Position numbers and translations under genes: made by a program. A stretch of 64,000 nucleotides of DNA from Amoebophrya sp. A120 (Eukaryota > Protista > Dinoflagellata), in assembly GCA_905178155.1 (NCBI GenBank), contig CAJINV010000013.1:1063790-1127789 (forward strand). The letters are read 5' to 3'. Below, piece by piece: positions 12,101 to 58,043 of the stretch (positions within the stretch are counted from its first letter, which is position 1; every line of letters begins with the position of its first letter). The notes below the pieces were generated by a model. That model had not been told where the DNA came from and did not search any database. It was given only the letters and a program-made list of their open reading frames with translations.

Positions 12101-15100
12101 GACGAAGCACTGGTTGTGTTGTTCATCATAGCATCAGCACCAGTATTGTTTTTCATCCGCATGTTTTTCAAAAGCGATCTCGACATCTGCAGGTCGGATA
12201 GGCTGTAAGAATTTTTGTGCGGTGCGGTTTGACTACGGAGGTTCGACATTTTGCTGATCTGTTCCTCGGCGGCTTTCGCCGCTGCGAGCATTTCTGGCGG
12301 TAGGTTGTCGTTTTCGTCAGGAAGTTTGTTCAAACAACTGCCTTGTCCAGCACTGCTGCCGTCAAGCGTCGGACTACTCGCGTTGTCCAAGCCCTGGAGG
12401 AGCATCGGCAGCCAGTCGGAAACGACACCGAACGGCGTGTGGTACTTGCCCGTGGGATTATTGAGTTTTGTGGTGGCCAGCAAGTCACCAGTTTTCGTCG
12501 GGGATGTCTGGCACCGCGGTGAAAGAGCAGCAGTTCCTGCGCCTTCGGACAGTTGTCCTCGTCCCGTGGATGCATTATCAACCCCTTCTCCGTGGTTCCC
12601 TTCGATCGTATCAGCCACGGCTTTCTCCACACCATCCACGATCGCGCGGGCAATCGACCCCGCGTCGCTTCTCTTTGCATCATCGGGCTGTAAATTATCC
12701 GGCATTTTTGCCTTTTCGTTTTCCAGCTCCTCCAGCGTTTTTTCGATGCTGTTCCGCAAGTCAATGTCCAAATTTGCCATTTCCGACTGGTGCTCCTCAA
12801 TGGACTTCAAAACCTCCTGTTCCCGGAGATTTTTCGTTGTTTTGAAGTCGTTGTCGTCCAGCAAATCACTCACGTTAAAGGGCGTCGGGGTCGTGCTCGG
12901 CCGGTAGCCCTGCGCACTGCCCATCCGGAGAATCGGGTCCGATTGCAACAAGCTGGTGGTCGAATGCCGGGAGTTTTGCCGGCTGTTCCGGTAGCTCGGG
13001 GCTTTGTTGCTGCCCGGAGTGCGCAACTCGGATTGTTCGCGGAGGAACGTCAGCAGGTCTTTCCCGGCAAAGTTCAGCGACATGGCGTTCTGCTTGTCCT
13101 GCTCAGACATCGGCTTATCGGCGGTGGAGGGGTTGGTGACATTTGTTCCGCCAGAAGGCGTGTTCTTCCCCCCAGAAGCATTGTTGTTTGCCTGAAGATC
13201 GTCGTCAGTCGCGGCTCCCGCTGCTGCTCCAGAAAGCAACTGCCGTCTGCTGGACCCGCCGGTGCTCGACTTGCTGGCCTCGCCGACGTTTTGGCCGGCC
13301 TGCGCCTTCCGGGCCGCGGCGAGGTTCACAACGTGCGAGTTGGCCTCCTCCAGCATTTGCACGACGGACTCCATGAACGGAGACAGCGGCCGCTTTTCCT
13401 TCGCGCTGTTATTGAAAAACCCTACTGCGGCGGACACCCGCGCCCAGTCGTCGTCGTAATTCTGCAGCGTGTATCAAATGCAAAAATGTCTGGGTCTGGA
13501 AACTTGTGATGCTGGGTGGCGTCTCATGATGAGGCCACAAGTGCTGGCTCAGCATGACAAGTTTCTGAGCTTCTAGGAAGGTGTAGGTGTTGCCTATTCT
13601 GCATGACACACTGCGTTTCTGCATCACAGAAAAACGCAGCTCTTGGGTAACGTGCATGACAGATTTAAGAGTCATGCCAGACAAGCATGACAAACATGCA
13701 TTCTTCCAGACCCAGACACTTTTGCATTTGATAGCGTGTTCGTGGTCCCGTCTTTCGTGATCTGCGGCGCGGCGGGAAAGATGCTTTCTTGCGAATGATC
13801 CCCAATCAGACTGTTTGCACTGTTTTGATGCCCTGCATTCGCCGCGGAAGTAGAAGTTCCCATGAAGCTGTCCAGGCTCATAGTGCCATGCTTATTGTTC
13901 GTCTTCTCGTCGAAAGAGTTACTTTCGTCTTTGTCTTTGTCATGCTGCCCACCCGCACCCGCCACCTCCTTGACCACCTTCCGGGAGACCGCGCCCTGCC
14001 CGGTTTCCAGGGCGTTTTGGCGTCGCCGCCAGGTGACGGACGTCTGCGAGCCCCAGGCGGGGAAGAAGGCGGAAGATGATCCTCCAGCTCCTCCCGAGGG
14101 GGTGTGCAGATCGGACGCGGAGTTCCCGCTTGCACCTCCACCCATTTGGATGGAGCTGGGCCGGCTGCCGTTGATATCGTGGAAGTCGCGCAAATTTTGC
14201 TCCGCCTGCAGCGAGACCTGTGCAAACATGTCATCGGGGTCGATCTGGATACTCTTCTGCTTCAGCGTTGTCTTCTCCGCGGTAGATTTTCCAGTCACTA
14301 TTCCTGGCTCGCCAGCCGTGGACTTTCGGCTCTTGTTCGACGCGTTTGCAGCTTCGGTTTTGCTCGCCCCAGTCGCGGCAGATTTCTTCGTCAGGGAATA
14401 AGTCGTCTTCGTGCTCTTCACGTGTAGGCTGGACGCTAGGCCGAGCGAAAGTTTTCGGTCGCGAATAGATTTCGTGTCCTTGACCGGGGAATCGGGTTCT
14501 CCTTTGGAGTTCTTGTCAACAGCAACTGAGCCGTCTTCTTGCTCCGGCGCGTTTCCCTCAACTGCTGTCTCAGCGCTGGTACCTGAAGAAGCCGCCCCCG
14601 GGGTGGCCTCCTTCTCTTTCTCCCCCCCAACTTCCTTTTCCAGCAAGGTCGATGCAGTGACGGACGGTGGCTCCGTACTGTCTGCAGCAGCAGCGCCATC
14701 AGCCCCCGCAGCTGCCCCGCCTGGCGGTAATTTCGTCCACCCTTTCGGCGGTTCGTCTTGCGGCAGAAGTTGCAAATCTAGTTGTTGGTCATTTCCGCCC
14801 GTCAAGGTCGTACAGGACTCGGTTCCGGACGCGGTCTGGTCCTCCTCTTGCGTTTCCTCATTCGCGAGAGTACTGGAAGAATCTTCGTTGGCAGCATCGG
14901 CTTCTGCTTGCTTGTTTTCAACACCGATTTTTTCCTCGTCCGATCCCGTAGCATCACGCCCCGCATCCTTCTTCTCTTGATCCTCAGCCACGGGACCGAG
15001 TATCCCCGCAGGAGCAACATCGGTCATCTCTTGGGAGATGACCACAGCCTGACTCATGACCTCTGTCTGTGCAACGATTTGTGCTGCAGCCTCTCCAACC

Positions 15101-23317: not shown

Positions 23318-26300
23318 TCATTGCTTTTGCCCACCACGGCGACCCTCTTCCCTGCTCTTCTCATCCTCCTCCTTCTGAATTTGCTCCGGCGTTTTGCCTC
23401 GTCGCCTATAACAGTGCACAACTCCCCCTCCCCCTCATTTGTGTAGCATGAACGGCAATACAAGCATCAGCAAGAGTGCCGGTTTTGCATGACAAATTTG
23501 CACTGAATTATACATAGTGCTATTCGGGCTACCAGAACTTGTCATGCAAACAGTGCCACGATGCAAAGGGTGGATTGGGTATTTTGCATGACAAATGAGG
23601 GGGAGGGGGAGTTGTGCGCTGTCATATCGCCGTTGCTTCGTGTTGAAGTACTGCACCGCCCGGACGAAGTCGTCCGCGTGGTAATCGGGAAAGTACTATG
23701 CATTGCAAATATGTCTGGGTCTGGAAGGTTGCAACTTGTGATGCAAATTTCACACAACACAAAGATCTGTGATGCATGAACAGCAAATGCGGCCCAAAAC
23801 TTGGCCCAAAAACAGCGAATCTGTCATGTGGATCAGGCATGGGGATACCTTCTCAAGACGTGTGATGCTATGGCTTGCATGCCAGACCTCCTAGATCATG
23901 CAAGAGCAGCATGGCAAATATCTGGACCCATCCAGACCCAGACATATTTGCATTTGATAAGTACTTGGACTCGAACAGAATCTCGGCGTAGCGCAACTGT
24001 GGTAGACAAAACTCGGACAGCCGCTGCTGGTCGCCGGTTCTGTTGTAATCAAGTGCGTGCGATAATTAAGCTCGCATTCTTATTTCTCGAGCGCATTAGT
24101 TAGCACCAAAACTGTCTTTCGACCAGTGCACAGCAGGTGGCGCAAAGCAGTTCTACCTGTGCCTGCTTGTGCTTCTTCGATTATGTTTATGACCTCACTA
24201 CAAACTACATCATGATAAAAACCAACCTCTCCAAAAAAAAATACCTGACGAGGAGATCAATCTCTGAGTCGATGCCCATGAAGGACATCAACTTTTCGAA
24301 GTCCCAATCCAAAAATTCTGCATTTTTCTTTATCAGGTGGTCCTGGTGCATGCGCTTCATCGCCTCCTGGAGTTCCCAGCTCGAACTGTACGAGAGCAAA
24401 ATGTTCAGCCGCATTTTCTTGTGCTTCCGCGTGCTGGTGTGGATCTCCTGAATCAGAGCCCGAAATTTCTGCCGCTCCTCGGTGGAAAGCTGGTAGACGA
24501 GATCGGGTTTTTTGTTATCAACATCGTGGTTAACCTGCTTCTTCGTCTCGTTTGAAGATCTTCCATCCGCTGCTGGTGCTCCCGCTGCGCTCTGCTCGCT
24601 TTTTTGTCGCTGGAATTCCGCGTTTTGCATCACTTGCTCCGTTGTCAACTGCCGCTGCTGATCCGCTTGCGCAAGCGAGTCAATCGACTGGCCGGAGGAG
24701 GACTTGGACCTGACTCCGGATAATTCTGTGTTGAGTTGTAGTCCCGCAGCAGTTGCAGTGGACGGCGCACCTGCATCTTTATTCCCACTCGACGTCCCAG
24801 TGACTTGCCTTTCCGGCGTGGGGCTCCCTCCTGCTTCCGCCTGCTGCTCTATCAAAAGGAAAAATCCCCCCTCCCCATATCAAAACGAGATTTCTGATGC
24901 TGGATTTGGGTACACAAATCAAATTTGTGTTGCAGTAGAGGAATGCACAGCACAGATCCTGAGCCTGGGCGGGGGCCATTTGGTGTAGGCGCCTAGCATG
25001 GTAAACGGCTATCCTGTAGGCCTTACAGCGTTACAAATCGCCTGCATAGCGTGCCGGACAACCTGAGCGCGCCTTCTTGCAAGACAGACCCCATTTGTGG
25101 TCACAAATCACCAGCACAAATTTTCGGAAACATACCTTTTCGATATGGGAAGGGGGGATTTTTCCTTTTGATATGCTCGCCCCGAATGTCTTCCTTGATG
25201 GAACTGGCGTTCGACGCCCTGCCGGGGGAATGATACCGGAAAAACCCACCGTGCACGGGTGTCGGGGTGCTCACGGCACTGAAGTTGGGGAGCTGCTGTT
25301 GATCATGCCCTTGTGGTCTACAACTGCTCCCTTGGCCGCCTATAATCAACGACGAGTTGTCTCCACCGCCTGCAGGTCCCGTGGCAAGGGGCCCTCCCAA
25401 TGCAGCGGTGCTCATTGCAGACAGTTGCAACGGCTGCGGCCGCAGGAGAGGGAAGGCGGCTTTCTGCTGCAGCAACCTGGTCATAGAAGACGTTGGCGAA
25501 GCAGAGGATAGTGGTGCTGGTGCCCCACCACAAACTCCTCCTGCTGCAGAAGAGACCACAGGCTGCATGGTCGTGGCTGATCCAGTTGTACTAGAGGCTC
25601 CTCCTGTCGCGGTACAACTACTTTGCAGCTGCCCTCGTAGTTGCTGTCCACCGGCCGCGCCCAGGAGGTTCATCTGATTCATCTTCGCGCACAGCGCCTC
25701 GTGCTGTTGCGCTTGAAATTCTTCTTTCGCTTGCGAGTTCCATACCACGTTGCACCAGGAGGGGGATATCGACCCCGCCTGAATTTGCTGGAACGAACTA
25801 CTCACCCCGGAGAAGAGCGAGCCGCCGGATTCCGAGGGTTGCTTCAGCGTGACCGACGAAATGGTCGAGGCCAGTGTATCCGGCGAATCGCTCCGCTGGG
25901 GCAGGACGCCTGTGGGCGGCACCGGGAGAAAGCTCTGGGCCGCCTGGTCCGCCGCAATCGGACCGGCGGTAGGTGGAGTGAAGGGTTTATGCAAGTAGAG
26001 AAAAACTGTGTTAGTCTGATGAAGAAATAACAGATGCGCGGCCCTTTACGTTTATTTCACACTTGTCACGCCGGATGGTGATCTTGGTACCGTCAGAGCG
26101 GCTTTCCATGGTTTTAACAAGGGACTCCGCGTACTTCTAGTGGCGCACGTTATCATGCTGCTCATCGAAAAATGTACTTATTTTTACACCAAACACAGAC
26201 TAAACTAAAACTTTTTTTTTGAATAGGGAGGTGCGCTGCTCTGCTGCTCCAAAGCATTTCCTTGGACCACTACACCTGTATTAGTACTACGCTGCCCGTC

Positions 26301-28457
26301 TTCCCGCTGATGGTCACCACCTTGTCCCTCGACCATAACTCCGTCCTGCTCCTCCTCCTCGTCTTCTCGTGGCGAGTTCCTGCGAGAGCTCAAGTTGCTG
26401 CCATCACTTACCGGGGTGGGTAGGTGCTCGGAGGAACTGGTATCCAACACGTGCGGCTGTCCTTCCTCGGCATTATTTCCGGGCGGTTTGCCGAAGCCCT
26501 TTCCCTGTGAAGATCCACGGCGCGCGGACGACTTCGAGGTTGTGTCCGACACAACCTCGAAGTCGTCGAAAGGGGGCGAAAGATCGCCGATCACGCGAAG
26601 CTGAATTTCGTTGTCTTTCAGCTGTTTTCGGAGCTCCGGATCGGTCAAAAAGTTCGTGAACCTAGCCATTAAGTGCTGCACTTCGTCCTTAGGCCGCTTC
26701 CAATTGTCCGAACCTTGAGGACGTAGAAAAAAAGTCAAGTCATGTTATCAAGGAGCTTTTCCACAGATGCATGGAACAAATAAGAACAAATTAGAAAACC
26801 AGCACGCCTCGTATCTTAAATTTTTGTGGTTCAAAAACCTTAAGCTCCGAACAGGTCACTTATGAAAAATGAGAAAGTAATTGAAAAAATTGTATACTGA
26901 AAGCGTATAGCGTCAGTTGCGGAATGCCAATTTTCGCCGCCGTTTCGATCAACTCGCGGACATTTTTCTCCGCCTCACTGTGCCCCGCAGATCGGTGGAA
27001 CCCCCTTGAAGACGCCCAGCGCCCGTTCCCGTCCATCACTACACCCACGTGGTTGGGGAGCTCAAGTGGACCGCGTTTTGCCAGAGGTTTCTTCTCCGTA
27101 TCCAGCTCGTGGGTGACTGTCGGGTAAAACGCGAGCAGCTGGTCTAGCGTAAGCGGCTTGGTAAAAACCGTCCCACCCGTCGAGGAGGCTTGTTCCGCAG
27201 TTTTCATATTCACTTTGGTCAGGAAACTTGACGCTGGACTGTTGCTTTCTGCAGCCTGTCCGCTCGACGTCGTGGCTCGGTCAACATTCAATGAGTGATT
27301 GTTCCACCAGAAATTTTTGCACTTGAAAAAAAAATCCTCCGGCGTAGTTGCCGCTTCAGTAGCGGAGGCTGACGTCGTCATCTTCGTGCTGGTGCCCATC
27401 AGGCTAGTACCACTCAAAAGAGGATGCGCTGCCCGCGCCCAAATCGAGGTTGGAAGCAGAGAGGAGTAGTAGATTGGCGCACCACCTCCAGCAGGTTCTT
27501 TATTTTGTGAAGATCCGGCTACAACTACTTCCCGCTGCATTTCCGCCTCATACTGCTGCTTCCGCAGGGTCAACGCCTCCTCGAAAGTGGGGATCTGGAA
27601 CGACGGGGGAGCGAAGTTGACATTGACGGCGGGGGTAGAGACCAAATGCATGCCGCGCTCAAAATTAGTGAGCGACCAGAAGGGCGCTGCATTCAAATTC
27701 ATTGGCGTCGTGCTGCTGCTGGCCGCTTCTTCGCATGAGAGAACCGCAGGTCCGTTGAGTTTATCGACTCTTGTTCCTGCTCTACCAGTAGATGACGGCG
27801 TTGCTGAATTTTTGCAACTACTAGCCAATGACCCGGACTGCTGGCCACTAGGGAGGACGGAAGAGGAACTAGTACTGCTCTCTCGACGAGCGACATCGTC
27901 CTCCACTTGGGTCACCTCCTGCTCCAGGGGGAACGACACCGTCTTCGCATATCGTGAGGAAAAATCCCCCCTCTCCACATCAAAAAGGGATACTTCTGAA
28001 AATTTGCGATGCTGATTTGTGGCCACAAATCGTCTCTGTATTGCAAGAAGGCCAAGCCAGAGACTCCGCCGCATTTTGCAGGCGGTTTCTGATGCTATGG
28101 GGCCTACAGAGTACACATTTGCCATGCTACGCGCCTACGTCAAAACCCTTCTACTTAGGCTTGGTATGGGCCTGCAGTCCTCTACTGCAAGACAGACCCG
28201 ATTTGTGTACCCAAATCCAGCATCAGAGACTTCCTTTTGATATGGGGAGGGGGGATTTTTCCTTGTGATATCGCAACCGCCGTTTTCTGGTGCTCAAAGA
28301 GCTTGGCTCGGCCAATCGTCGACGCAATCGTGGAGGCAATAGCGGTGCTGCTCACCAAGAGGAGGTGACAAAGTGGCTGCACCCATTTTTTCGGTACAGG
28401 GAGAGGAGATCTCGAGAGACGAGTTCTGGTAGAAGACACGGGGCCGCAATTCGTCAT
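23318..28457 (-). CDS. cis-prenyltransferase (UppS/DHDDS family) with long low-complexity insertions, about 8 exons
   Basis: Reconstructed motifs: LPNHVGVVMDGNGRWA, TLYAFS|SDNWKRPKDEV, LRVIGDL, LNILLSY, IDLLVR|TGDQQRLSEFCLPQLRYAEILFESKY|FPDYHADDFVRAVQYFNTKQRR|RGK. GT-AG introns at 26714..26897 and 24040..24244, four TIR introns, and one unresolved intron at about 25986-26225. Confidence 0.9.
23407..23626. mobile_element. Introner-like TIR element, family F2 (TIR TATAACAGTGCACAACTCCCCCTCCCCCTCATTTGT)
   Basis: 36-bp TIR with 2 mismatches; TSD TCGCC at 23402-23406 and 23627-23631; removal restores the C-terminal RRG motif of the cis-prenyltransferase. Confidence 0.92.
23697..23959. mobile_element. 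Introner-like TIR element, family F1
   Basis: TIR with TGCAAATATGTCTGGGTCTGGA; TSD AGTAC at 23692-23696 and 23960-23964; removal gives ESKY|FPDY. Confidence 0.92.
24850..25173. mobile_element. Introner-like TIR element, family F3 (TIR TATCAAAAGGAAAAATCCCCCCTCCCCATATC)
   Basis: 32-bp TIR; TSD TGCTC at 24845-24849 and 25174-25178; removal joins ORFs 25101..25994 and 24205..24855 (IRGE|QQAEAGGSP). Confidence 0.92.
26527..26567. repeat. Perfect 20-bp-arm palindrome within a coding exon
   Basis: GACGACTTCGAGGTTGTGTC-C-GACACAACCTCGAAGTCGTC. Confidence 0.9.
27950..28270. mobile_element. Introner-like TIR element, family F3, inverted relative to the 24850 copy
   Basis: TSD TCGCA at 27945-27949 and 28271-28275. 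Internal GATTTGTGTACCCAAATCCAGCATCAGA is the reverse complement of the 24850 copy interior. Removal gives HQKTAVA|KTVSFPLEQ. Confidence 0.92.
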
Positions 28458-29000
28458 TTTCAGTGATTGATGTGAATGGCAGTCGTGTTTTTCTCAATCG
28501 GTGTCAACGTAGCTGCGTCAGGATGGAAACAGCAGGTGGAAAAAAATGATTTGTCTCACAGCATGGTCTACTTACGCAGAAGGTGAAGCACAAAAACATA
28601 CAGCGGATAGCAACCAAATTAAGACAACATCGGCGCATTGGCAAGGCACAATGGGAGCAATAAAACTATCCATCATGATACGTATTCAATTTTTTTGCAG
28701 CTGTTGATCTTTACGCAGAGCAAGACAATAAAGCAATTATGCTCTTTGTGCATACTTTGATCAGGATCGAGATCCACAACCGCCCTGATACCATCGTAAC
28801 ACAATCACAACGAACTAAACCAAAGCAATTGCCCGCTGCAGGAGAAAAAACAAAAAGAAACGCGGCGTAGGCGTTTGGACTACTTAATAAAAAAAATTCG
28901 ACCAGCATGAATGTTGCTCCTCGCTCAACCTGAACGTGAACACGATACAACAGGCTCGAATTTCATAAATCTACTTCTTCATCAAAACTAGATCGGAATG

Positions 29001-31228: not shown

Positions 31229-31593
31229 TATACATTGCAAACATGTCTGGGTGGTCTGGAAAGATGCAAAGTTGTGATGCTTAAAATGACTTGTGATGCT
31301 CGTAGTTGTCCGTGTTAACACACAAAAATCTGTCTTGCAAGACTCGGAAAAGTACCCATTTTAGGGCATGTTGCTGTAGTGCTTGTAGCCATGTACATGT
31401 TGACAGTGCACTTCTCCTACAGGATAGGCATCGCATAGACCCTGCTAGATCTGTGATGCTAGGCCCCACATTTCAGACATCGTGGGGGCGGGGCTTGCAA
31501 AACGAAAACCTTCACCTGCATGGCAAAGATCTGCATCTTTCCAAATCCACATCCAGAGCCAGGAATTCTATTTCTAAGTATTTGCATTTGATA
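31229..31593. mobile_element. Degenerate F1 TIR element, apparently just 3' of the small gene's stop codon
   Basis: Left end TATACATTGCAAACATGTCTGGG; right end TTTGCATTTGATA; TSD TTCTC/TTCTT (1 mismatch); small insertions in the TIRs. Confidence 0.75.
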
Positions 31594-31603
31594 TTCTTTT
31601 CTA

Positions 31604-32340
31604 CTACGGTTGAGCTACTAGCACTGGCTCTCCAATGTTCGGATTCTGGTTCGGGTCGAGGTTCTGGTACCACCAAGAAAAATTGGATGTGCCAAGCTTT
31701 TGTGGACAGTGGCCTTGGTCCCCCGGCACGATGTCCCAAATAGTTCCACAGGGCAAGTTTTTATTGCTTTCGTCGCTAGAAGCTTCTAAACTTGTTATCC
31801 TCGCCTCACCAAACCAGAAATCGTGCTCTTGATACCAGTACCCAGAAACGACGTCCCCGATCGGGAGTTGTGCACTCAACATGTGCGCTTGTTCATCATT
31901 CTGGGCATAATCGGTCCAGGACGAGCTCATACCCCATTCGTGGTTTATCAAATGCAAATACCTAAGTATGTCTGGGTAAGGAAGACAACTGTGCCGGCAC
32001 CCATTGGGCGACATGACAAGTACTAGTTGGGAAGTGGATTGCGCGCAGAAGCACTACGGGTCTTCGTCTTGTTGCGAAATATTCTTCATGCATACCTACT
32101 TTTCCGCATGAGAAGTTCTCCTCTTGCATCGCAAAAAAGAAGCAACTATCCGTATTCCCACGCCACACATTTATGTGCTGTTGAGATTTAGCATCACAAG
32201 GAAGTTGCAAACGCATCAATATTCCAGACCCAGATGACATATCTGCAGCGCATATGGTTTATGCTCAGTGCTTGCAGGACCGGCAAAGAAAAAACCACGT
32301 ATATCCGGAGTGGAAACGACGCCCTTGCCCCTACGTAAAG
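31604..32340 (-). CDS. Small hypothetical protein with a signal-peptide-like segment, split by a TIR element; start not resolved
   Basis: Removing 31946..32254 plus one TSD gives ...FPLRIYVVFSLPVLQALSINH|EWGMSSSWTDYAQNDEQ...; stop at 31604. Confidence 0.5.
31946..32254. mobile_element. Introner-like TIR element, family F1 (diverged)
   Basis: TATCAAATGCAAATA...ATGTCTGGG at the left and CCAGACCCAGA...GCATA at the right; TSD TGGTT at 31941-31945 and 32255-32259. Confidence 0.82.
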
Positions 32341-36213: not shown

Positions 36214-36497
36214 CGCATCGTTGGCAATATCGACTTCTGTTTAATTGGGTTTTTGTTTTTCGTTTTTTCTTTTTCTCATCTATCACAAATTTCTTCCTAC
36301 ATCCCTTCGCGCATAACAAACTACACAGTGCTCCTTGGGGTATCGATATGCCAACTATGCGATACAAAGTACTTACCCTGTCGAGACGCCGCTTTCTTGT
36401 CCCCCTTCAGCCGCTTGTCGGTAAAGAACGGCATCCACAACGAGAACCAGAACATCTCATCGGACGAAGCTTTATCAATGATCCCACATGTGCATAT

Positions 36498-38600: not shown

Positions 38601-38668
38601 ATTTTCGTGGTCTTTTATTTTTTGTTCTCAAGAAGTAAACACCTGACTAGATGAAGTAAGACTTTGTT

Positions 38669-46174: not shown

Positions 46175-49100
46175 TTATTTCCACGAATCGAAGGGATCCC
46201 CCCGCATGAGCGCTTCCAATTTTCCTGGATCTTGCATGGCTCGCACGACGTAACCCGCACGCTCCAATAAATCGCCATTGATGGACGCCGTTGCCAGCAT
46301 GACCCAACAAGCCGCGTAGTAGTTCTCGTTCGCGATCTGCCGGCGAGAAATGGTCAAGCCGGCGTGGTCCAGCACATCCTGCTGGTTGTATTGCAAGACC
46401 TCGCTCCCCGTGTACTGGTGTACCAAAGCCGTGGAGATGGGGCCAAACATGAAAAAATTCCACTGCCACGACGAATGGATTTTGCTTGCGAAACACTCCG
46501 GCGGGGCGGGAATTCCGGTCATGTCCACCCCCATGTCATTTTTTCAGTCGTTGCCCGCAACCGTCTCTCCCGTCCACATATCACGGGCAAAAGTAAATTG
46601 TGTCAGTTACTTTCGTGCGCGAAAAATCTTTTGGCCACGCCCCTATTATGTGTTTTCGCGTTATTATGAGTACTTATCTATCGTGTGACTTTCTCTTTGT
46701 GAACGGATCCTGCCTATCACTCGCACTTTTAGAAGGACTTTTGCCACACATATCATGCTTTGTCCATTTGCAAGACGATGCGGTCGAGAAACTTCTGCGA
46801 ATTGAAGTCTGCCACGCCCTTATACAGGTGAAATACACTGTGCTGGTGTACCTTTTTCAAATTTCAGTGCAGACCACCATGCAAGACAGTCAGTAATACA
46901 ACTGTAATCAATGCCACAAACCAGCGGCAGGTACAGGTAAACTTGAAATAACCTAGTTTACATTTCACGAAGCAAACGAATATGAATAACCTATGGATGC
47001 ATGAATGAATGCCTACTTATGTAACTTCGTTCCTCGTCCTCGGTCATGCGAAATAAATTTGTGATGCCATTGAGGTCTTCAAAAAAAGCTACACCAAAAC
47101 ACAGTTTTTCCCCCTTGATAGCCCTCGATCGGCGGCTCGTGCGCGTACCACACGCGATCCGTCAACACTCGCCACACGCCCCGAGACCCCTCCGAACCGA
47201 ACTCCTCCTTGGGGGTGCCCGACCCGGCCAACTCGAGGCGGCCGTAGCGGCGGTCCCCCACCCGCTGCGTGGCGTCGGCCCCCTTCTCGTTGGTGTTGTA
47301 CCAGTTCGAGATCCACCCCGTCTGCGGGCACTGGTTGTCCTTCAGCATGTTGTAGGTCCCCCGCAACAGCTTCTCCCACTCGCCATCCGCGTGCGACACG
47401 AACGGCGGTTCACCCGGAGAGGCGCCTGCGAAACTATCCGGCGGCGGCCACTCGGTGTGGTACCCGGACGGGGGGCGCTCGAAGCGGTCCCCAGGCGGGG
47501 CCCCCACGACGGACTCGAACGCGTCCATGTAGTCGCGGCACAGCCGCCACACCGCCGGGCCGTGGTAGCTCGGGTTCTGGCCCTTGCGCGGGTGGGTATC
47601 GGACACCCCGAACCCGCCCCAGGACGTGCCCACGGTAAACAGGTACTGGTCCTCGTTGACGCCCTTGCCCTTGTCCACCAAATGCACCATCACGTCCTTG
47701 CAGGACTGGTAGCTCTCCTTTGCCAGGTTGCCCCACCAAAGGTAGTCATCCCGGTCCGCGGCGGTGGTGAGGACCAGGAGGATCATGCCGGCGATCCCGT
47801 CAATGTCGCCGTCCGAGGCCGAGTTGCAGCCGCCGCTCAGGTGTTCGGTCAGGTCCGGTTTCACCTTCCAGTGCGGGAGACAGGGGTGGCAGACCCTCTC
47901 GGCCTCGCGCAACTCGTGCATGTAGACCTTGTCCATGCCCTGAAAGGGGCAGTCCGGGCCGCAGAAGTAGGCGGCCATCACGTCGTTGCGCCCAGCGTGG
48001 TACTTGATCGCAAAGTCTTCCTTGCACTCCGTCGAAATGTAGCAGGCCTGGCGCCAGCCGTACCAGGTTTCCAGCGTCTCCTGCACCGCCTCGTCGTACT
48101 GCGGGTCCGATCCTTTGCGCCAGCCGTAGGCCACCCGCATGGCCGCCACGGTGGTGCCGCCGATCCACAGACCGTAGCCCTGCCCCTCGGACACCACGCC
48201 CCTGGCCGCGCCCCCCGAGGATACGACCACGCGGGCGTCCACTGTGGTATCGAAGTACTGCACGCCCGGCGTTACTTGGGTCATGGCGCCGAGCCACTCC
48301 TTCCGGCGCGCGTTAGTATGCCCCGCCGTCGTTGTGGACAGAAACTGCGAGCCCGCGGGAGCTGGTGTGGGCGGTAGGGGGCCGGGCGATGCGGTACCGG
48401 ACGGTGGCGTGGGGCCTGGCGTTGGCGTGGACAACGGATCGGGATTAGTGGTACTAGTACCACCTCCGCTGCTGTTCGGCGACGGAGCAGGAGTGCTGCT
48501 TCCTCCTGTGCTCCCCGCCGTAGTGGGTTCCGGCGCTTCCTCCTGCGCGACCGCCACTTTCGCGCCAGTTTGCACATTCACCAGGTACGTGCCGTCCCAG
48601 CGGTGCGCGTGGTCGCCCCACACTCCCTGGTCCCAGTCCCAGAGCCAGCATTGCAGGCCTTCCGTGAGATCCTTGGCGTGGATTGGCACCATCTCGGGTT
48701 CCTTGGGGTCCACGGTAAAATCGGGGAAGTAGCACACCGGCCGTTCATCTTCCGCCACAGGTGCTCCGGAACCGGACCCGTTCGCGCCAGTTTGTTCACC
48801 ATCTTCTTGCCCGGCAGCCTCCGTTGCTCCTGCTTCCTCGCCGGAACTCGTGCAGCATGATCCAACGGCGCCCTCGGCTGCATCTTCCGCGACCGTTCTC
48901 TCATCGAGATTCGCGACGGAAGTACCCAGCATTCCCGAGGAGGCCCCCACAGCAGACGGCGCGCCACTGCTGGAATGAGCAGCCACCACGCTCGGCGATT
49001 CTTGCGTGGGCGACTGAGGCGCAACTGCCTCCCCGCCGACCGTTGCACCACTATCGCAGACCATCGGAATGGTTACGTCGGTGCGGGTGGCGGTATCCCA

Positions 49101-50271
49101 GGTTTTCCGGGCGATCCCGTAGGCGCCCTCGTAGGAGCAGGTGTCGGTGAGCTGCTGGATGTCCGGGGGGTTGGCATTCATCACGATGCAGTACCAAATA
49201 TAGCCGCCGGGGCGGGGGTAGTGAGGTCGTGGGCGTTTTCTTGCCGGCCGTCGCCTTGGCCGCGGCCTTGCTTTTTCTTGGCTCGCCATGCCGCCGCGAG
49301 TAACGTTAGGCCGCACGGTATGGCGGCCGCTCGATAAACGTCGCAAATTTTAGCAAATTCCCGAAATTCCTTTCCGAAAGACAGCCCCCATGCTATGGAG
49401 CCGATCCGGGTGCCACGGTGGGCGCCCAAAAAGCGAAGGAAAATCGGGCCCATAGCATGCGGATTGGCTTTGCGCGTCTGGGGCGCTTTTTCTTTTTCGC
49501 GTTTTCATTTTTCACGCCGGCGCGTTTTGCAAAGCTTCCCAGGCTCTGAAACCGGCGAAAAGGCGGCCGCTTTCGCGGCCGCCCAAAATGCTCCGAAATC
49601 GCGGCCGTGCCATGCTGTTTCGCTGTTCTGATTTTGGGCGCGTTTTTTGCGCGCCCCTTTTTGGGCGCCCCAAATCGCCAGAAACCAAGGCGGCGGGCGC
49701 CTCAGAAGGGCGCCCCTTTTGCCGGCTCCCCTGCGTCGTTTTATCAAGTGCGAATCGATAGTTTTCGACCGGGCTTGTTTGATGGCAAAGCCCCGCCCGC
49801 TTGATAATTGAAAATTTTTTATGTCCAAAAACGCTTCCGGCCGCTTGAAAACTGCCGATCGTTTTTCAGGGTATATGGCAAAAAAACTCCCTGGTTAGAA
49901 CCGTTCGGTAACCTCACTACATACCAGGACCCGCCTTGGGTGTCGCACTCCCCCTCCCCGAGGCACTGGCTGTACCACAGGTCTTTTTTGTAGCAGAGGT
50001 TTTTGGAGCCCTCCGCCACCGACGTACCGGCAGGCTCCGCGTCGCAGCAACGCTCCTCCGTGCAACTGTCCCACCGCTTTTTGGCGCAGGTGTGGCCCGG
50101 GGGGGCCGAGGGGTTGTGGTCGTCTGAGGTCGTCGAGGAGGAGAGAAAAGTCTCCGCGTGCTCCGTACGATTTTCATTTTTCCCGGTATTTTCGTTTTTG
50201 TCGGCGGCCATGCCCATGCCGTGCTGCTCCTCCTTCTTCATCTTCTGCTGCTGTATAGTCATGACTTTCAC
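46175..50271 (-). CDS. Glycoside hydrolase family 8 enzyme with an N-terminal Cys-rich CBM1-like module and a P/T/S linker; 5' end unresolved (possibly to ~50850)
   Basis: GH8 motifs VVSEGQGYGL, SASDGDIDGIAGMIL, NPSYHGP, FGSEGSRGVWR and a last exon with NYYAACWVML. Cys module CAKKRWDSC...CC...CYKKDLWYSQCL...C...W|YC is completed by removing 49197..49921 plus one TSD. Confidence 0.82.
49197..49921. mobile_element. Long intron-like insertion with 5-bp TSD and a short subterminal inverted repeat (family F7)
   Basis: TACCA at 49192-49196 and 49922-49926; inverted repeat GTAGTGAGGT (49218-49227) and ACCTCACTAC (49911-49920); interior alternates A/T runs and GC runs. Confidence 0.7.
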
Positions 50272-52305: not shown

Positions 52306-55300
52306 CTACTTTTTCCAGTACGGATGGTCTTCTTTAAACTGCTCCCAATCTTCCAGGTTAAGATCATTCGCCTCCATGAAGAACTCTGCCAATTCTATGA
52401 CCTGCTCAGGTGTTGTTCCAATCTCCAGCGTTACATTGGAAGTGGAGCTTTGTGATGCAAAGAGAGCACGATCTGGCCTATTTGCTCTAACAGGAACAAA
52501 TACGCATGACAAGTTCTTGAGTCCCAAACTGCCTGAAGATCCGTCGAATTTTGCATAAAAGCGGAACACTTTGTGTGTCTGTCATGCTGATTGTGCAAGA
52601 TGGAATCCAGATTCTTTTGTAACGTTTGAGATTGTAACCTGTGACAGGGTCATAAACTCCAGCTCATGATTCTTTTCTCGTCGATCCTCGTAGATTTCGC
52701 CCAGAAACACGAACTCGCCCGAAAAGATCCGGACAATGCGCCACAACCTGTAATTACAGACACATTTTCATCGTATGAATTCGCTTACATGATTTCGCGT
52801 CAAAATGCCTGCGGCTCGTGCTTAAAATTCCCTTTCCCTTTGTCATGCACTATACAATTATTTCTACTACGTACAACTTGTAGTTCGAACTGAAACTAGC
52901 ACGACTTTCCCATTCGATATCGTAGGTACTGTGCATCAGAAAGTTTTGCCGCATCATGATCGAGGGTGCAGCATCTCACTACAATTCGACGAGTTATTTC
53001 AGAAAGCAACTACTGTACCGCAGAGCCACAACCATGTCCAGCTCTTCGATTTGTTCTGGGAAGACCACCTCTTGGATGAAGGACATGGGGACAACGATCG
53101 CGTCGATCCACATCCCCGCGATCTTCATTTTGGTGCCAACACTATGGGAGTGTCAGGTTTGAAATCGACAGGGTTCAAATATTAATTTCTCTGCCTCAAT
53201 ACAGCATGGCAAACTGGCTTCAGGTGCTCCAAACATTTGTCACCACGCGCCACACAGAAATAAGGGTCACAGAACTGGAACTTGTATCCGTATCGCTTTT
53301 ATGCATTACAAAGCATTTGAACCTCGTCGATTTCAAACCTGAGGCCGCGATAGACAAAGAAGTGCTCGTACAGCCCGTTGGCCAAGATGTGCAGCACCAG
53401 CTCCACCATGAAATGCAAAAATGTCTGGGTCTGGAAGGATCCGAACTTGTCATGCTGATTTTGTATTCCAACAAAATCTGTATTGCATGAGCAGCAACGA
53501 GAGTCCAAGTTTTGCTACACGGGAAGAGCATTTGTCGTGCGGTATAGGCATCAGGAAGCCCTCACAAAATCTGTGATGCTAGGGCATGCATCACAGACAT
53601 CAGGAGTCATGCAAAATGTGCATGACAAACCTGGCAATCTTCCAGACCCAGACATTTTTACACTTGATATCCACCATGAATAAGCAGATCACGCACAGAC
53701 TGATCGTCTCGAACACCTCCTTTATTTCGGCCCAGTACCCCACGTAGATGAGCAGCTTCCCACTCCGCCGGTGGGGTACTGTACTCGCGTCCTGCTCACC
53801 CCCTGCGGTCTTGCCCTCGGTACTCCCGGTCTCCTGCTGTGGTGTATTTTTTTCTGTTTACCGGTCGCGGAGAAAAGCATGAACACCGAACATTCAATCT
53901 AATCTCAAAGTAACGAGAGATAGAGTACTTGTAGAAAGTACTTGTATTCTTGTGGAAAGGACCCACCTGCTTTTGTATTTGTACCGAAATAGCAGGACAA
54001 TAAACATCAAAATCGATCGAACAGATACGCCTTCTCCTGCTGCTGCTGGTGTGGTTTCCGGTGGGTGTGTTTCAGCCAAAGCTGCATGATCACCGGTTGC
54101 CCGTCCCTCGTCTGGTTTATGGAAGATTGCTCAGATGTTACAATCTCAACCGTTACAATACACTCGGGACTTCGTCTTGCACAAGCAGCATGAGAAACGT
54201 AAAGAGCCTTGCTCTTTTCGCAATTTTGCTAGATTTCAATGAAGTTTGGGGCTGCGGAACTTGTCAACATGCGCAATCCTGTGGGAGTACGTAGGCTAGA
54301 TCATGCACTTTTGGCAGCAAAGCTCTTCCTATTCTATTGTAACGCTTGAGATTGTAACACCTGAGCAGGTTATATGTTTTTGCTTTCGTTTTTGTAAGTC
54401 CCTCGGCATCCACGGCCACCGATACGAGGAAAGAGGTCGCACCGTCGTCATCTTCCCGCGTGGGCAGCTGTTTCTATCCACTGCAAATATGTCTGGGTCT
54501 TGAACCTTGTACTGCTAGTCTGAGTCTGTGAATTGACACTACAATATGTAGCCACGCATGCTACATGTTGCGTAAAATTCCGCACGAGCTATTGCGTTTC
54601 TGCATCTCTGGAAAGAGGCGCGAGTTTCGGGGCACATGCGTCGATCACAGTTGTAGAGTTCAGAGTCATGTCAGACATGCATCATGACAAGTCTTGTAAT
54701 GTTCCGGAACTAGACGTAGACCTAGACATATTTGCAAATTGCATAGGTCCCTGCGGCCTATCAGACAGGAAAGGAGCAGCTAGCAAATATCATCAAAAAT
54801 GCAAAAAGACATACACAAGATTGTTTGCCTTACACAATCTCAGAGCATCTCCTGCTTGAGATATGAACGACAGATGTATTTCATTTTTCTCTTCTCGGCG
54901 TGGATTATCATATTTCTGCTTCACAAATATGGTAGAATGCTAGCTTTTTTCTCTGCGATACGTGTAGTCCGCTGCGGACGCGACCGCATGCTCCCGTGGA
55001 CATGCGGAGTGTCGTCAGCAGGCTCGGGTTGTTCTGTGGCATCGTTGCGGTGGTGGTCCTCCGGATGAGCAGAATGCTGTGCGGCGCCCGTTGCCTCGGG
55101 TGAAAACTGGTCCGGGCTGTCCCAAACGGGATATTGCAAATGCTCCGCGACGTTTGACCATGCTGGCGCGACGGGAAGCTCCGACACGGGGGGCACCGCA
55201 GGAACGTAGTTGTACAGGTGCGATAAAGGGTGGTCGTGGTGCCCAGTCAGAGCATGCTGGTCGTCGTGGTCCTTCTTCTCAGCCTCTTGGTCGTGCAGGT

Positions 55301-58043
55301 TTGTCACATCACCCGTTCTTCCGGCAGAGTACTCATCGTGTAGTTGCTCCACTGCCGCGCCGTCGTTTCCGGCGCTGCCCTCCTGGTCTTTTCCTTCCTT
55401 GAGTGCTGTTTTTTTGTTTGATTCGCGCTCACGCTGTTTCTGGGATTTTTTTTTTGAGACGACGAGGTGGTAAAAATAGAGTATATCTCGATTTTCCTTT
55501 TCAGCGGCACCAGACACATGTCCTGTCGCACTGAAGTAAATGAGTAAATTTCAAACGTCGCACCACAATCCATTTATGTTTATGATTTACACTTTCACTT
55601 GATGTAGTAGCTGCCTGCGAACCAATCTTACGCACGGTAGTGAGTAGTTGTTAATAACAGGTACTACTGGATATCGCAACAAGTTATTACTATTAGTCAC
55701 AGTCAGCTACACAGGAAAATCGAAATTTAATAACTACCCTCCATCGCCAATGTGTTCAGGCGGCTCTGATATCCGCGTTCGGATTCTGGCACGACCTCGC
55801 CATCTCCTTTTCTTTCTGTATCGCCTGCTCAGGTGTTTTCACAATCTCAACCGCTACAATATTTAAAATGCCTTCCATGGACAACTACGTGAGGAACATT
55901 CAGTAGAGACGACTACCTAGCACTAGCACTTTACTTCGCAATGCAAATAATTCCGTCGGATTCTAGTGGGGTTCTTTGGGGCTCCTGAATTTGTCCTGCG
56001 TATTCCTGCGAGAGCAAGAAGTTGCAGTCCAAGGTCTAGTTCAGATTGTGCACAACTCTTTGCATCACAGATCTCCGACGTTCCTTTCAAAAATACTCAT
56101 TCGGAAAAACGGTTGAGCTTGTAGTAACACCTGAGCGGGTCATATTCTGTCGTTCTGTTTTTTCTGTGCTCCGCGAACTTGAGGTGCAGGTGGTCCACGT
56201 CCAGCTGCTGCTCCAGAGCCTCGTCGCCGCAGCCGTCGCCCACAAGTTCGTCCGCCGCGATATCGTAGATGCAGCCGTTATGAATTGCAAAAGTGTCTGG
56301 GTCTGGAAGAATGGAAGGTCTGTCATGCTCTGCTAGCATGACTCCAAAGTCTGTTATGCTTGTTACCCAAAAGCCCCATTTTTGTGTCATGCCGAAACGC
56401 GGTTTCGGTTTGTCAGGCAGAATACGCAACACCTATCAAGTCAGGAACTTGGCATGCTGAGCCGTCTCTTGTGGCGTCCTCAGGATTCGCCAACCAGCAT
56501 CACAAGTTTCCAGATCGTCCAGACATATTTGCATTTGATAGCTGTGCACGTCGTCCAACTTGGGACGGTGGATAAACGCCTTCCTTTCAATCTCCTGAGT
56601 AAAAACGTCCCCACCCCATAGTTGTAGCTCTCATGCAAATCAGCAAACCTAAAGACATTTCTCATGCGCAGCCCCATGAGGAGCATTTTTCAATGGTATC
56701 TCGGAGTTTGTCATGCTGGAACCAGGATAAGGCGATCTACTTGTGATGCGGCTGCACAGGCTAAACACGACTAAGCTGCGAGCCGAAATTTGTCATGCGC
56801 AATGCCCAAACCTTGTGGATTTGTGTAGCAAAGCCCCCATTACTTGACTATGGGGTGGGGACGTAGTTTTTACACAGGATATTCAACCTCGGTCATGCTT
56901 TCGTGGTCCGGAATGTCGACGCGGACCTCCACGTCGTAATACTCGTCCGGGATTTCGTGCAGTCCGTTCCACTCCCGCGGCACTTCAATGACGGCATCGA
57001 GCATTATGTTCATCGCGACCATGGTCACATCCACGATGATCAAGAGAAGGATGAGCAGCTCGAATTTCGGGGAGTGGTGAAACAGCTTCACCAGAAACCG
57101 CTTCCACTTCGGCATCCTCGGGTGTAGTCCATCATATGCATTGCAAATTGTTGCATGTCTGGGTCTGGTGGAAGAGCTCCACCAGGCAAGTTGTGACGCT
57201 AAATCTCGAGCTGACAAAAATCTGTATTTCGGCATCAGTGCCAAACGCTGCCCACTCTTTGTCTTTGCTACAGATTCGCGTGCAAAACTTGTACACGTAA
57301 TGCTCATGCTTCACATCCTCTGAACCAGACCATTTGTCTACTCCAGAAAATGCATCATGTCAAGCAAGTGCAAGCAGCCTTGTTCCAGACCCACACGACA
57401 CACTTGCATTTGATAGTTGGTTCCTGTTAGCTACATCGCCACCGGCGGCCGCAGCGTCCCGCTCGTTGTTGCTCAAAACGGAGGCCTCATGCAGCCGCAC
57501 CAGCTCGTCCTGCGCGAACAAAGCGTACTGCGCTCGTTCGTCCAAGTCGCTCCTGTTCGTCTTGGACGTCGCACTGTGAGACGTTGCATTGCCACCAGAA
57601 ATTTCGCCGGAGGCACTTTCCCGCCGCGTCCTGCGGACGATTTGGGTTCCGCTCGGCGGCTCCCGATCCGGCGCAGAGCTCGGCAGCCGGTCGTTCACCG
57701 TTATCAAACGTTGCTCGACATCGATGTAATCGCTTGCCGGCAAGGCGAAAGAGTTGGCGGGGGTAGTTCGGTCGAAATTCTGTGCGCTGCGCGACGAGGA
57801 CGACACACCTCCCGTCGCTCCAGTGCCTGTAGTGGCAGACACGGATAGTTGTTCTTCGGTCGTACTTGCCGCTCCACCATCTACGGCCCCAGCAGCCCCC
57901 GTAGCATGATCCCCGGACGCAGACGATGTACTGTTCCGCTTCCCCTTGCCCTTCCTCTCGTTTCGGTTTCCCCGATTTGAGGATCCCTGCTTGTTGCCTG
58001 AAGGGGCCGTCGAGGGACTAGAACCACCACCGGGTTCGGACAT
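52306..58043 (-). CDS. HVCN1: Voltage-gated proton channel (Hv1) with a very long S1-S2 loop, about 14 exons
   Basis: S1 KFELLILLLIIVDVTMV (selectivity-filter Asp), S2 EVFETISLCVICLFMVE|LVLHILANG, S3 WIDAIVVPMSF, S4 VVALR|LWRIVRIF (RxWRxxR). No pore domain; stop after HPYWKK at 52306. Nine TIR elements plus GT-AG (e.g. 52748..53018) and GC-AG introns. Confidence 0.9.
52396..52654. mobile_element. Introner-like TIR element, family F4 (TIR TATGACCTGCTCAGGTGTTACAATCTCAACCGTTACAA)
   Basis: TSD AATTC/AACTC; removal gives NHELE|LAEFFMEAND. Confidence 0.85.
53153..53342. mobile_element. TIR element, family F6 (TCAGGTTTGAAATCGAC..GGTTCAAAT), coinciding with a possible GT-AG intron 53142..53338
   Basis: 28-bp TIR with 2 mismatches; no 5-bp TSD; lies between the S2 and S3 exons of Hv1. 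Confidence 0.8.
53407..53669. mobile_element. Introner-like TIR element, family F1
   Basis: TSD TCCAC at 53402-53406 and 53670-53674; splits the conserved S2 FMVE|L codon. Confidence 0.92.
54118..54374. mobile_element. Introner-like TIR element, family F4
   Basis: TGCTCAGATGTTACAATCTCAACCGTTACAATA and TATTGTAACGCTTGAGATTGTAACACCTGAGCA; TSD TGGTT/TGTTT; in-frame KAKT|DEGRAT. Confidence 0.85.
54475..54745. mobile_element. Diverged F1 element
   Basis: TGCAAATATGTCTGGGTCT and AGACCTAGACATATTTGCA; TSD GTTTC/GGTCC (2 mismatches); in-frame GRRD|QLPTRE. Confidence 0.75.
55819..56144. mobile_element. Introner-like TIR element, family F4
   Basis: TSD TTCTG at 55814-55818 and 56145-56149; in-frame NRTTE|RKGDGE. 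Confidence 0.87.
56279..56540. mobile_element. Introner-like TIR element, family F1 (inverted orientation)
   Basis: TSD GCCGT/GCTGT; in-frame DDVHS|CIYDI. Confidence 0.87.
56591..56881. mobile_element. Introner-like TIR element, family F5 (TIR CCTG.GTAAAAA(CTA)CGTCCCCACCCCATAGT)
   Basis: TSD TTCAA at 56586-56590 and 56882-56886; in-frame TEVE|RKAFIH. Confidence 0.87.
57135..57415. mobile_element. Diverged F1 element with no recognisable TSD
   Basis: TATGCATTGCAAA...TGTCTGGGTCTGG and CCAGACCCA...TTGCATTTGATA; removing the element plus 5 nt still gives in-frame NRNQR|LHPRMPKW. Confidence 0.75.

Follow-up and report, generated by a model that had tools for sequence, protein, structure and literature searches.

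Removal of TAT…ATA introner elements consistent with a single 1 + 4 cut register in a 64-kb window of Amoebophrya sp. A120

Introduction

Genes in a 64-kb stretch of the Amoebophrya sp. A120 genome (hereafter the window) are interrupted by short elements with terminal inverted repeats (TIRs), which raises the question of how such elements are removed to the exact nucleotide and what marks their ends. Introner elements of A120 were published in 2021 (Farhat et al., PMC7789003). As described in the text and legends of that paper, their inverted repeats consist of TAT, seven variable bases and then As, their direct repeats measure 3-5 nt (5 bp in the legend of Fig. S19), and they have a mean length of about 240 nt, belong to many families, are mixed with canonical introns and show RNA-supported removal. 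The same text puts the number of such repeated introns in A120 at 29,850 and offers no explanation of how they are removed. The window elements and these introners are the same system and the class is already known, as an initial annotation of this DNA had proposed by linking the elements to repeated non-canonical introns reported in Amoebophrya. The elements themselves are thus not new; what is added here is a single cut register that fits all informative junctions, the independence of removal from orientation and repeats, and the conservation of U+2.

Results

TAT…ATA elements and their host genes

We scanned the window for TAT…ATA ends with an inverted repeat and obtained 21 matches, 18 of them at a score of at least 12; five shuffles of the window gave 0-2 matches each, with 0-1 at that score. 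The final census comprised 28 elements, four of which were recovered through RNA joints or by reading and not via the scan. Twenty-seven lie within 13467..57420, where the initial annotation had claimed about 20: it was right that there are many, but its count was low. Its estimate of at least seven TIR families agrees with the 14 clusters obtained by BLAST, which are mutually unrelated and contain elements of 192-1182 nt. On the transcribed (minus) strand, all 28 elements start with TAT and 26 end with ATA, the exceptions being 53407 (ATG) and 56591 (AGA). The flanking 5-mers are identical in 15 elements and different (eroded) in 13. The elements are short, non-coding and multi-copy, with TIRs and target-site duplications (TSDs), as MITEs are, and they are likely non-autonomous transposons of the published A120 introner class. 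An Rfam search of the window gave no match, and no orthologous empty site with a single target copy was found. The strain-specific TAT signature and a gene order on one strand accord with A120 as the host.

Taking out an element together with 5 nt opened long stop-to-stop frames. The family-1 element 13472..13733, which has a perfect 5-bp flank (7-bp repeat), lies inside a frame of 3810 aa, and the removal of 39407 gave a frame of 2054 aa. The cis-prenyltransferase gene (23320..28493; Pfam PF01255 and gene model) holds three modelled canonical introns and four elements placed by sequence and gene model, namely 23407..23626 (RR|RG), the family-1 element 23697..23959 (Y|FPDY), 24850..25173 and 27950..28270, the latter two sharing a cluster; its frame is 1117 aa long once the four are removed. 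The PF01255 matches are continuous across the exons (profile 1-50, 49-93, 95-168 and 170-194), and the last exon (FPDY…) alone gave no Pfam match. Two elements were recognized by sequence, the family-1 element 31229..31593 (flanks 4/5 alike) and 31946..32254, with family-1-like ends and a perfect flank, which is probably in an untranslated region. A frame of 818 aa, with four elements removed, includes 32978..33305, and one of 981 aa results from removing 46821..47120 and 49199..49923; 32978 and 46821 were identified by TIR scan and frame. The element at 49199 is a multi-copy TAT…ATA element of 725 nt without a long inverted repeat and with flanks 3/5 alike, identified by the frame that its removal with 5 nt joins. 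Outside the range covered by the initial annotation, 124..362 (TIR scan and frame; flanks 4/5 alike) interrupts an open frame of 651 aa.

The gene at 52308..58043 (756 aa; RNA contigs and model) contains 10 exon-interrupting elements, one nested element and three canonical introns, and its stop-to-stop frame measures 764 aa with the 10 elements removed. The nested element is an eroded copy at 55482..55732, within the canonical intron 55406-55737 (TIR scan and gene model). None of the exons of this gene gave a Pfam match; presumably it is Hv1-like, judging by the S4 motif RxWRxxR. Three short exons of the window were compared with PDB entries, with no informative match. All seven canonical introns modelled in the window begin with GTA. 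Overall, the claims that deletion of an element plus 5 bp restores the frame, also at Y|FPDY, RR|RG and FMVE|L, and that the removed lengths span all three phases (267, 268 and 329 nt) were reproduced.

Exact removal in RNA contigs

For two stretches of the window, we examined contigs of four runs from one sample, unstranded and presumed to be RNA. Eleven elements, at 10 junctions, were absent from these contigs, and at all 10 junctions the gap equalled the element plus exactly 5 nt. The exact joints of six elements were found in 4/4 runs: 33482..33673 (197 nt removed), the family-1 elements 34124..34386 (268 nt), 34771..35023 (258 nt) and 39407..39666 (265 nt), as well as 52396..52654 (264 nt) and 53143..53352 (215 nt). 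In 3/4 runs, 1569 nt were removed at 37036..38599, which consists of two tandem TAT…ATA units (37036-37412 and 37418-38599) and lies downstream of the 2054-aa frame. Three more joints were found in run X3, for the family-1 element 54475..54745 (276 nt), which adjoins a 7-nt micro-exon, for 54759..54960 (207 nt) and for the family-1 element 57135..57415 (286 nt). When equivalent boundaries were considered, no GT-AG, GC-AG or AT-AC reading was available at any of the 10 junctions. The minor-spliceosome (U12-type) donor motif is RTATCCTT, and a U12-type AT-AC reading was likewise absent from all 10. Exact removal at the element ends, predicted by the initial annotation, was therefore observed at 10/10 junctions, and neither retention of the elements nor nearby cryptic GT-AG sites, the outcomes that would have spoken against it, explain these junctions.

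Five further removals are backed by the size of RNA contigs, among them those of the family-1 element 53407..53669 (ATG end on the transcript, FMVE|L), 54118..54374 (flanks 4/5 alike), 55819..56144 (perfect flank) and the family-1 element 56279..56540 (flanks 4/5 alike); 56591..56881, with its AGA end on the transcript, rests on an RNA contig and the frame. The size check of 53407 and 54118 is partly circular, since the canonical intron 53837-54028 was picked for its GT-AG ends and for its fit to the RNA contig size.

Canonical introns were skipped on the same contigs as the elements, with 36237..36376 and 52748..53018 serving as GT-AG controls in 4/4 runs. A retained form of element 52396 was present at low depth in X3 (8.6 vs 239), and canonical intron 52748 gave 6.5 vs 182; by contig depth, a rough measure, the retained share of the element is similarly low to that of the intron. 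In DNA run X1, the elements were kept in unbroken, window-identical contigs at background depth (record 7 covers 54471-56306), and X1 may be the window's own source. In the raw-read run X9, only 136 reads matched; nearly all of these fell on copies of the elements, with 90-95% identity, and none fell on an exon. The gene with 46821 and 49199 had no coverage by RNA contigs.

Removal was seen in either element orientation, the internal orientation of 39407 being opposite to that of the family-1 elements 34124, 34771 and 53407. It was also seen without a flanking repeat, 57135 and 33482 sharing 1/5 flank bases, and with an inverted repeat of merely 5 bp in the tandem pair 37036-38599.

A single cut register

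Seven junctions have diverged flanks and thereby restrict where the cuts can fall. The registers allowed are {0,1} for 33482 and 54475, {0,1,2} for 54759 and 52396, {1-4} for 53143, {1-6} for 37036 and {1} for 57135. All seven fit one register, in which the intron is N-TAT…ATA-NNNN, with one base removed before the element and four after it; the chance that seven junctions share any register is 0.0067, and 57135 is the single junction that fixes the register alone. A codon-score test of the register at other loci gave 21/34 (p=0.23). According to the text and legends of PMC7789003, the position of the splice sites of A120 introners varies with respect to the hairpin, and their border is given as unknown, whereas here one 1 + 4 register fits 7/7 informative junctions; this 1 + 4 rule was not found in the papers searched, among them PMC7789003 (text and legends).

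We also considered other readings of the ends. A model removing the element plus 3 nt, cut one base before TAT and one after ATA, has GT/AG-like ends, keeps 8 flank bases and also preserves the frame, but was rejected because all joints remove the element plus 5 nt. A GT-AG reading of 56591 at register 6 was excluded by an RNA contig that matches 56882-57130 without difference. For 13472, the statement that no GT-AG, GC-AG or AT-AC boundary is available was confirmed; 23407 is the one exception among the elements, with a GC-AG equivalent boundary inside the repeat.

Conservation of the element ends

To determine which end positions are conserved, we turned to loci on other contigs, where 445 element calls (322 with perfect 5-mer flanks) gave 393 unique, 326 oriented and 300 counted copies, the last having flanks at least 3/5 alike; the scan tolerated one terminal change per element. 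In the 300 oriented copies, positions 4-10 are variable and positions 11-12 are A in 84-91%. The strands are not treated alike. Changes at U+2 numbered 0 vs 9 for its mirror A-5 (loci and window; sign test p=0.004), those at +3 numbered 1 vs 5 at the mirror and those at +4 numbered 5 vs 3; the asymmetry differs between +2 and +4 (Fisher p=0.009). Three cases that contribute to the asymmetry (L064, L114, L027) have less certain ends, and without the two core-anchored ones among them the U+2 count is 0 vs 7 (p about 0.016). At TIR position 8, taken as a control, changes were 7/159 vs 4/164, which indicates no bias towards A mutating. The selective keeping of the 5' U+2 goes beyond what the text and legends of PMC7789003 describe.

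In contrast to U+2, the usual splice signals were not preferred among the 300 copies: G+1 occurred in 101/300 (p=0.21), 3' AG in 28/300 (p=0.23) and G-G or A-C first-last pairs in 53/300 vs a 14.8% background (p=0.17). A at -2 was raised (95/300, p=0.006), a result that fails correction for 20 tests. Of 221 perfect-repeat copies, 18 could be read as GY-AG in one or another of their equivalent registers. AG at -2/-1, at 24 vs 9 of 221 against the antisense, was dismissed as a signal, with no enrichment over the flank background. The A at -7 is present in 28/28 window elements and 297/300 loci copies, and the mirror base is equally conserved. An invariant A-7 was rejected on account of three GTA ends; these three copies with G at -7 lie within open frames, one of which needs the removal to reach 882 + 269 aa, and the change to G retains a G-U pair with U+4. 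The family-1 bodies in these loci run 37 one way and 42 the other, with 30 unresolved. Transcript 5' ends in the window seemed to favour TATC, but the loci bore this out only weakly (124/159 vs 109/163, p=0.03), and it was set aside.

Discussion

Our main reading, to which we give about even odds (a probability of roughly 0.5), is that a relaxed major spliceosome reads N-U-A in the way that it reads GUA donors, with the 3' cut measured from the element end. A transposase leaving 5-bp target duplications would insert the element either way round; pairing of the ends would then bring the splice sites of the pre-mRNA together, replacing the cross-intron bridging by U1. The 5' cut would be set by U+2 and A+3, as in canonical GUA donors, with +1 free, and the 3' cut by the distance from the element end and not by AG, the likeliest branch nucleotide being the first A of ATA (-7), though not strictly required. 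As 1 + 4 equals the 5-bp duplication, the original exon would be restored at any target site and in any phase, which would account for the spread through coding sequence being confined to TAT…ATA families that make 5-bp duplications.

Several published features are compatible with such a spliceosome. The text of PMC7789003 reports U2, U4, U5, U6 and 83/89 spliceosomal proteins in A120, with no U1 and no U11, U12, U4atac or U6atac, and states that 15% of canonical introns contain the same repeats. Non-GT/AG introns of Fritillaria are described as removed by the spliceosome (PMC13326754; PMC11282704), and in Entamoeba invadens the branch point is described as lying at a constant -8 (10.1101/2022.06.08.495308). 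The strand-specific conservation of U+2 speaks somewhat more for a relaxed spliceosome than for an enzyme that cuts hairpins symmetrically. Counting against the relaxed spliceosome are the lack of any preference for G+1, AG or a terminal pair, when G-G or A-C first-last pairs are described as used in step 2 (PMC13326754), the G at -7 in three coding copies, which bears on the branch point, and the need to unwind a stable stem (39407, z = -8.8). The initial annotation had also placed an alternative machinery beside the spliceosome. The coexistence with canonical introns is borne out on the same contigs. A separate recogniser of paired ends is hypothetical; the 1 + 4 cut is asymmetric, and both the direct repeat and a long inverted repeat are dispensable.

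The most serious competitor, which we consider possible though doubtful, is a non-spliceosomal endonuclease that reads the UAU/AUA stem base and cuts 1 nt (5') and 4 nt (3') outside it, a ligase joining the exons. This would account for the absent G+1, AG and terminal-pair preferences, for the G tolerated at -7 with its pairing to U+4 kept, for the strong terminal stems and the removal of both orientations, and for the rarity of GY-AG readings among perfect-repeat copies. It also resembles euglenid introns, described in PMC11282704 as pairing +4..+6 with -8..-6, forming circles and being perhaps spliceosome-independent. Against such an enzyme, the invariant base stands exactly at the spliceosomal +2 and matches the GUA donors of this organism, and the base with which it pairs can change; an inverted repeat of only 5 bp suffices for removal of the 1569-nt tandem element, the ends of the folded 377-nt unit (37036-37412) are unpaired in the minimum-energy structure, and no such enzyme has been identified. 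More broadly, and only tentatively, the elements may reveal either a second chemistry for splicing RNA or a spliceosome altered enough to ignore both terminal dinucleotides and the branch A, reading only U+2 and the stem base with a fixed 1 + 4 stagger that equals the 5-bp duplication.

The remaining explanations are far less probable. Excision at the DNA level, as in the internal eliminated sequences of ciliates, or RNA from a strain lacking the elements appears very unlikely. The element ends do resemble transposon ends, and joints in the DNA run are known only among the matches listed, with 493 further ones beyond them; but the X1 contigs, possibly the window's own source, carry the elements unbroken, the RNA contigs match the window without a difference, leave out its canonical introns as well and include retained forms, and a DNA enzyme would leave the transcript-strand asymmetry unexplained. 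It is hardly credible that the joints are reverse-transcriptase template-switch artefacts ('falsitrons') across hairpins, with the mRNA retaining the elements. A hairpin with a direct repeat is a known setting for such artefacts, as described in PMC8240250 and PMC2923612, and the RNA evidence consists throughout of contigs of presumably cDNA libraries. Against this, the two sides of the exact joints at 57135, 33482 and 54475 have 0-1 nt in common, and the exact joint at 37036 involves no long hairpin. Retained forms make up a small share, keeping the elements would disrupt long frames, one of them of a conserved enzyme, and selection at +2 is strand-specific. Self-splicing by the elements would agree with their strong folding and with removal without canonical signals, yet it is extremely improbable given 14 unrelated clusters (192-1182 nt) that work in both orientations and the lack of any Rfam match in the window.

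Several known systems come close to the one described here. Euglenid nonconventional introns, as described in PMC11282704, are similarly MITE-like, with paired ends, TSD-like repeats, non-canonical junctions and staggered pairing, and coexist with spliceosomal introns; they pair CAG +4..+6 with CTG -8..-6, whereas here UAU +2..+4 faces AUA -7..-5, and they are released as circles. In Fritillaria borealis, according to PMC13326754 and PMC11282704, transposon-derived introns with TIRs and TSDs are handled by an adapted major spliceosome; there AG-AC and AG-AT ends are preferred, U1 is kept and about half of the terminal pairs are isosteric, whereas here neither the first nor the last base is constrained, and A120 has no detected U1 (text of PMC7789003). 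The introners of Micromonas, Aureococcus, Polarella and Symbiodinium are also TIR transposons with splice sites fixed relative to the TSD, some of them in both orientations, but their GT/GC/GA and AG sites, whether carried or recruited (10.1101/2020.10.14.339549; PMC11282704), constrain the target site, whereas 203/221 copies here are without GY-AG.

A fixed N-TAT…ATA-NNNN rule allows base-exact annotation of every such intron and explains how the elements can enter coding sequence at any point and either way round without leaving a scar. If the spliceosome removes the elements, it works without the near-universal G+1, AG and terminal pair; if it does not, a new splicing route exists. Should only U+2 and the stem base be read, TAT…ATA ends would turn whatever lies between them into an intron that leaves no scar, wherever it sits and whichever way it points, and a whole transposon superfamily would have been domesticated at the level of the host.

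As for the source of the mobilising enzyme, TIR elements of A120 with Copia-integrase-like ORFs, described in PMC12130899, are candidates; in contrast to these, no long coding TIR element was present in the window or in 530 kb of other loci. A pattern scan of viral contigs gave 0 matches. In contigs of one other assembly, 158 matching stretches were found, and the summed depth of element copies in the DNA run was very high.

TIR elements and their host genes

Genes between 13467 and 57420 had been described in the initial annotation as interrupted by about 20 elements with terminal inverted repeats (TIRs), removed exactly and at non-GT-AG boundaries. These elements are real; we found 28 TAT/ATA-bounded elements in the window, 27 of them within that range. 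A scan for inverted-repeat TAT…ATA structures returned 21 matches; the same scan of five shuffled sequences gave 0-2 apiece. The elements are 192-1182 nt long and form 14 BLAST clusters, the biggest containing 10 elements. On the minus strand, which carries the host frames examined, all 28 begin with TAT and 26 end with ATA, and the flanking 5-mers are the same on both sides of 15 elements and different for 13. Deleting each element plus 5 nt gave open frames of 651-3810 codons in seven genes, and the junction peptides listed in the initial annotation were reproduced from the window. The cis-prenyltransferase gene has a Pfam match that carries over from one exon to the next.

Several elements and host genes have features of their own. 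The longest frame (9183-20880, 3810 codons) is of low complexity and interrupted by one element. The gene at 52308-58043 may encode an Hv1-like protein, judged by an S4 motif; Pfam searches with four of its exons, taken singly, gave no match, and its 756-aa protein has about 450 low-complexity residues between predicted helices one and two. At 49199-49923, a 725-nt TAT…ATA element, multi-copy by depth, has internal inverted repeats and no long terminal one; its deletion with 5 nt joins a 981-aa frame. The tandem pair at 37036-38599 consists of two TAT…ATA units with common 5-mers. The long unit contains 23-24-nt tandem repeats, and the short unit corresponds to the long one with a deletion. 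No credible ORF was found in this pair, and its loose ends suggest further copies elsewhere. The canonical GT-AG intron 55406-55737 encloses an eroded element (55482-55732) that was possibly turned into it; the donor of this intron is found 5 nt beyond the element end.

Exact removal in RNA

Contigs from four probable RNA runs of one sample, listed next to probable DNA runs, were compared with the window over 38600-58500 and 33401-53400; nine elements (including 13472 and those of the cis-prenyltransferase gene) lie beyond these stretches, and two lie in a gene that the contigs do not cover. Two canonical GT-AG introns were absent from the four runs and the stretch was covered in parts only, both of which fit RNA. 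Elements 33482, 34124, 34771, 39407, 52396 and 53143 were skipped in all four runs and the tandem pair in three, while one of the runs, X3, gave further junctions at 57135, 54759 and 54475. All 10 joints removed exactly the element plus 5 nt per unit, and none could be read as GT-AG, GC-AG or AT-AC at any equivalent position, in agreement with the initial claim. A contig of another run, X6, across 51621-57130 is 2329 nt, identical to the model length, which supports five additional removals, one canonical intron of the model having been picked to fit. Retained forms were also present, at a low depth that in X3 was similar for an element (8.6 vs 239) and a canonical intron (6.5 vs 182), contig depth being a rough measure. 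A 7-nt micro-exon (54747-54753), between elements 54475 and 54759, was retained in an X3 contig.

A 2026 RNA run with the same species label (X9) contained reads of copies of family 1, a recurrent element family of the window, at 39616-39666 and 53413-53456 (90-95% identity), and none on window exons, suggesting a related strain with the same family.

Fixed cut register

Perfect repeats mask the cut, whereas diverged flanks expose it. With k the number of bases upstream of TAT at which the intron begins, seven informative joints allowed {0,1}, {0,1}, {0,1,2}, {0,1,2}, {1-4}, {1-6} and {1}. Only k=1 is compatible with all seven (probability of a common value under random registers, 0.0067), so the intron is N-TAT…ATA-NNNN. 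Element 57135 alone fixes k=1; three junctions exclude k=0 and three k>=2. Scoring codons at other loci did not separate the registers significantly (21 of 34, p=0.23).

The elements leave exactly, at a fixed stagger and in either orientation: 39407 is inverted relative to 34124 and 34771, and at loci on other contigs the bodies of family 1 are split (37 in one orientation, 42 in the other, 30 unresolved). A direct repeat is unnecessary, since the flanks of 57135 and 33482 agree at one of five bases. A long inverted repeat is likewise unnecessary, since the 1569-nt pair carries just TATGC/GCATA; the ends of its 377-nt unit are unpaired in the minimum-energy fold.

Strand-specific constraint and mechanism of removal

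A pattern scan yielded 152 loci (530 kb) on contigs of one assembly, similar to the window in repeats only, which were oriented by a window-trained codon model. Its sign was correct for 7/7 mostly held-out 3-kb chunks and for all 13 short chunks above threshold (of 33). The loci gave 445 element calls, among them 393 unique ones; 326 could be oriented, and 300 entered the counts. Where a terminal triplet carried a single change, including two cases from the window, intron U+2 was never the changed base, against nine changes at its mirror A-5 (p=0.004); A+3 changed once, against five at its mirror, and U+4 five times, against three for A-7, every one to G. TIR position 8, used as a control, had no comparable bias (7/159 vs 4/164). 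Equal constraint on the two ends, unlike this strand bias, would be expected from a transposase or a plain stem. Three elements of family 1, at L067 5791-6762, L046 3862-4492 and L045 571-1051, are longer (481-972 nt), have perfect flanks and are possible nested insertions.

We favor removal by the major spliceosome, with a probability of about 0.5. The U+2/A+3 donor would be retained by this machinery, the paired element ends would bring the sites together, with U1 reportedly absent, and the 3' cut would be measured from the element end, the branch being probably at -7. The seven canonical introns modelled in the window (36237, 52748, 53837, 55406, 24040, 26006 and 26714) start with GTA (7/7), end with ACAG (6/7) and have A at -7 (5/7); their 3' ends are A/C-rich, not pyrimidine-rich, and one ends ACTAACACAG, with a branch-like motif merged with the acceptor. 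Against a normal spliceosome count the lack of excess of G+1, AG or G-G/A-C first-last pairs among the 300 copies, an A at -2 raised before correction only, and the G at -7 in three copies within open frames. The main rival, an endonuclease-ligase route like that proposed for euglenids, is a tentative but serious possibility. Under either model, the exon would be restored at any site, since 1 + 4 equals the 5-bp duplication. Among 221 copies with a perfect repeat, the removed lengths are evenly distributed over the three phases (71, 67 and 83).

Excision from DNA is very improbable; among the matches listed for X1, a DNA run that may be the window's own source, the elements are present in unbroken, identical contigs. 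Skipping by reverse transcriptase is just as improbable; exact joints are seen where the flanks share 0-1 nt (57135, 33482 and 54475) and where a long hairpin is missing (37036), and U+2 is constrained on one strand. So is self-splicing RNA, given the 14 unrelated clusters, removal in both orientations and the lack of an Rfam match in the window.

Relation to published work

This element class is already known. The accessible text of PMC7789003 describes A120 elements with a TAT-seven bases-AAA signature and 5-bp repeats, backed by RNA-seq, calls splice sites variable relative to the hairpin and gives U1 as undetected in A120. The available parts of PMC11282704 repeat this account and treat euglenid and Fritillaria introns; those of PMC12130899 report diverse TIR introners in A120, one family with Copia-like ORFs, and those of PMC12005148 report that another Amoebophrya has U1 as well as canonical introns. 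The Roy preprint concerns core dinoflagellates, with Amoebophrya unmentioned in its accessible text. In contrast to the variable sites of PMC7789003, the seven informative window joints all fit the single 1 + 4 register; no paper stating it was found in the literature as accessible, and Figures 3, S19 and S23 of PMC7789003 and subscription papers may bear on it. Our additions are this register and the constraint on U+2 on one strand only, which make the removal mechanism testable.

Elsewhere in the window, a gene at 5884-7783 encodes a LanC-like protein (PF05147, E 2.5e-39 on exon 2), a 108-nt repeat is present in three copies near 3.9 kb (3847-4194), and 14-nt tandem repeats occupy the right end (63859-64000).
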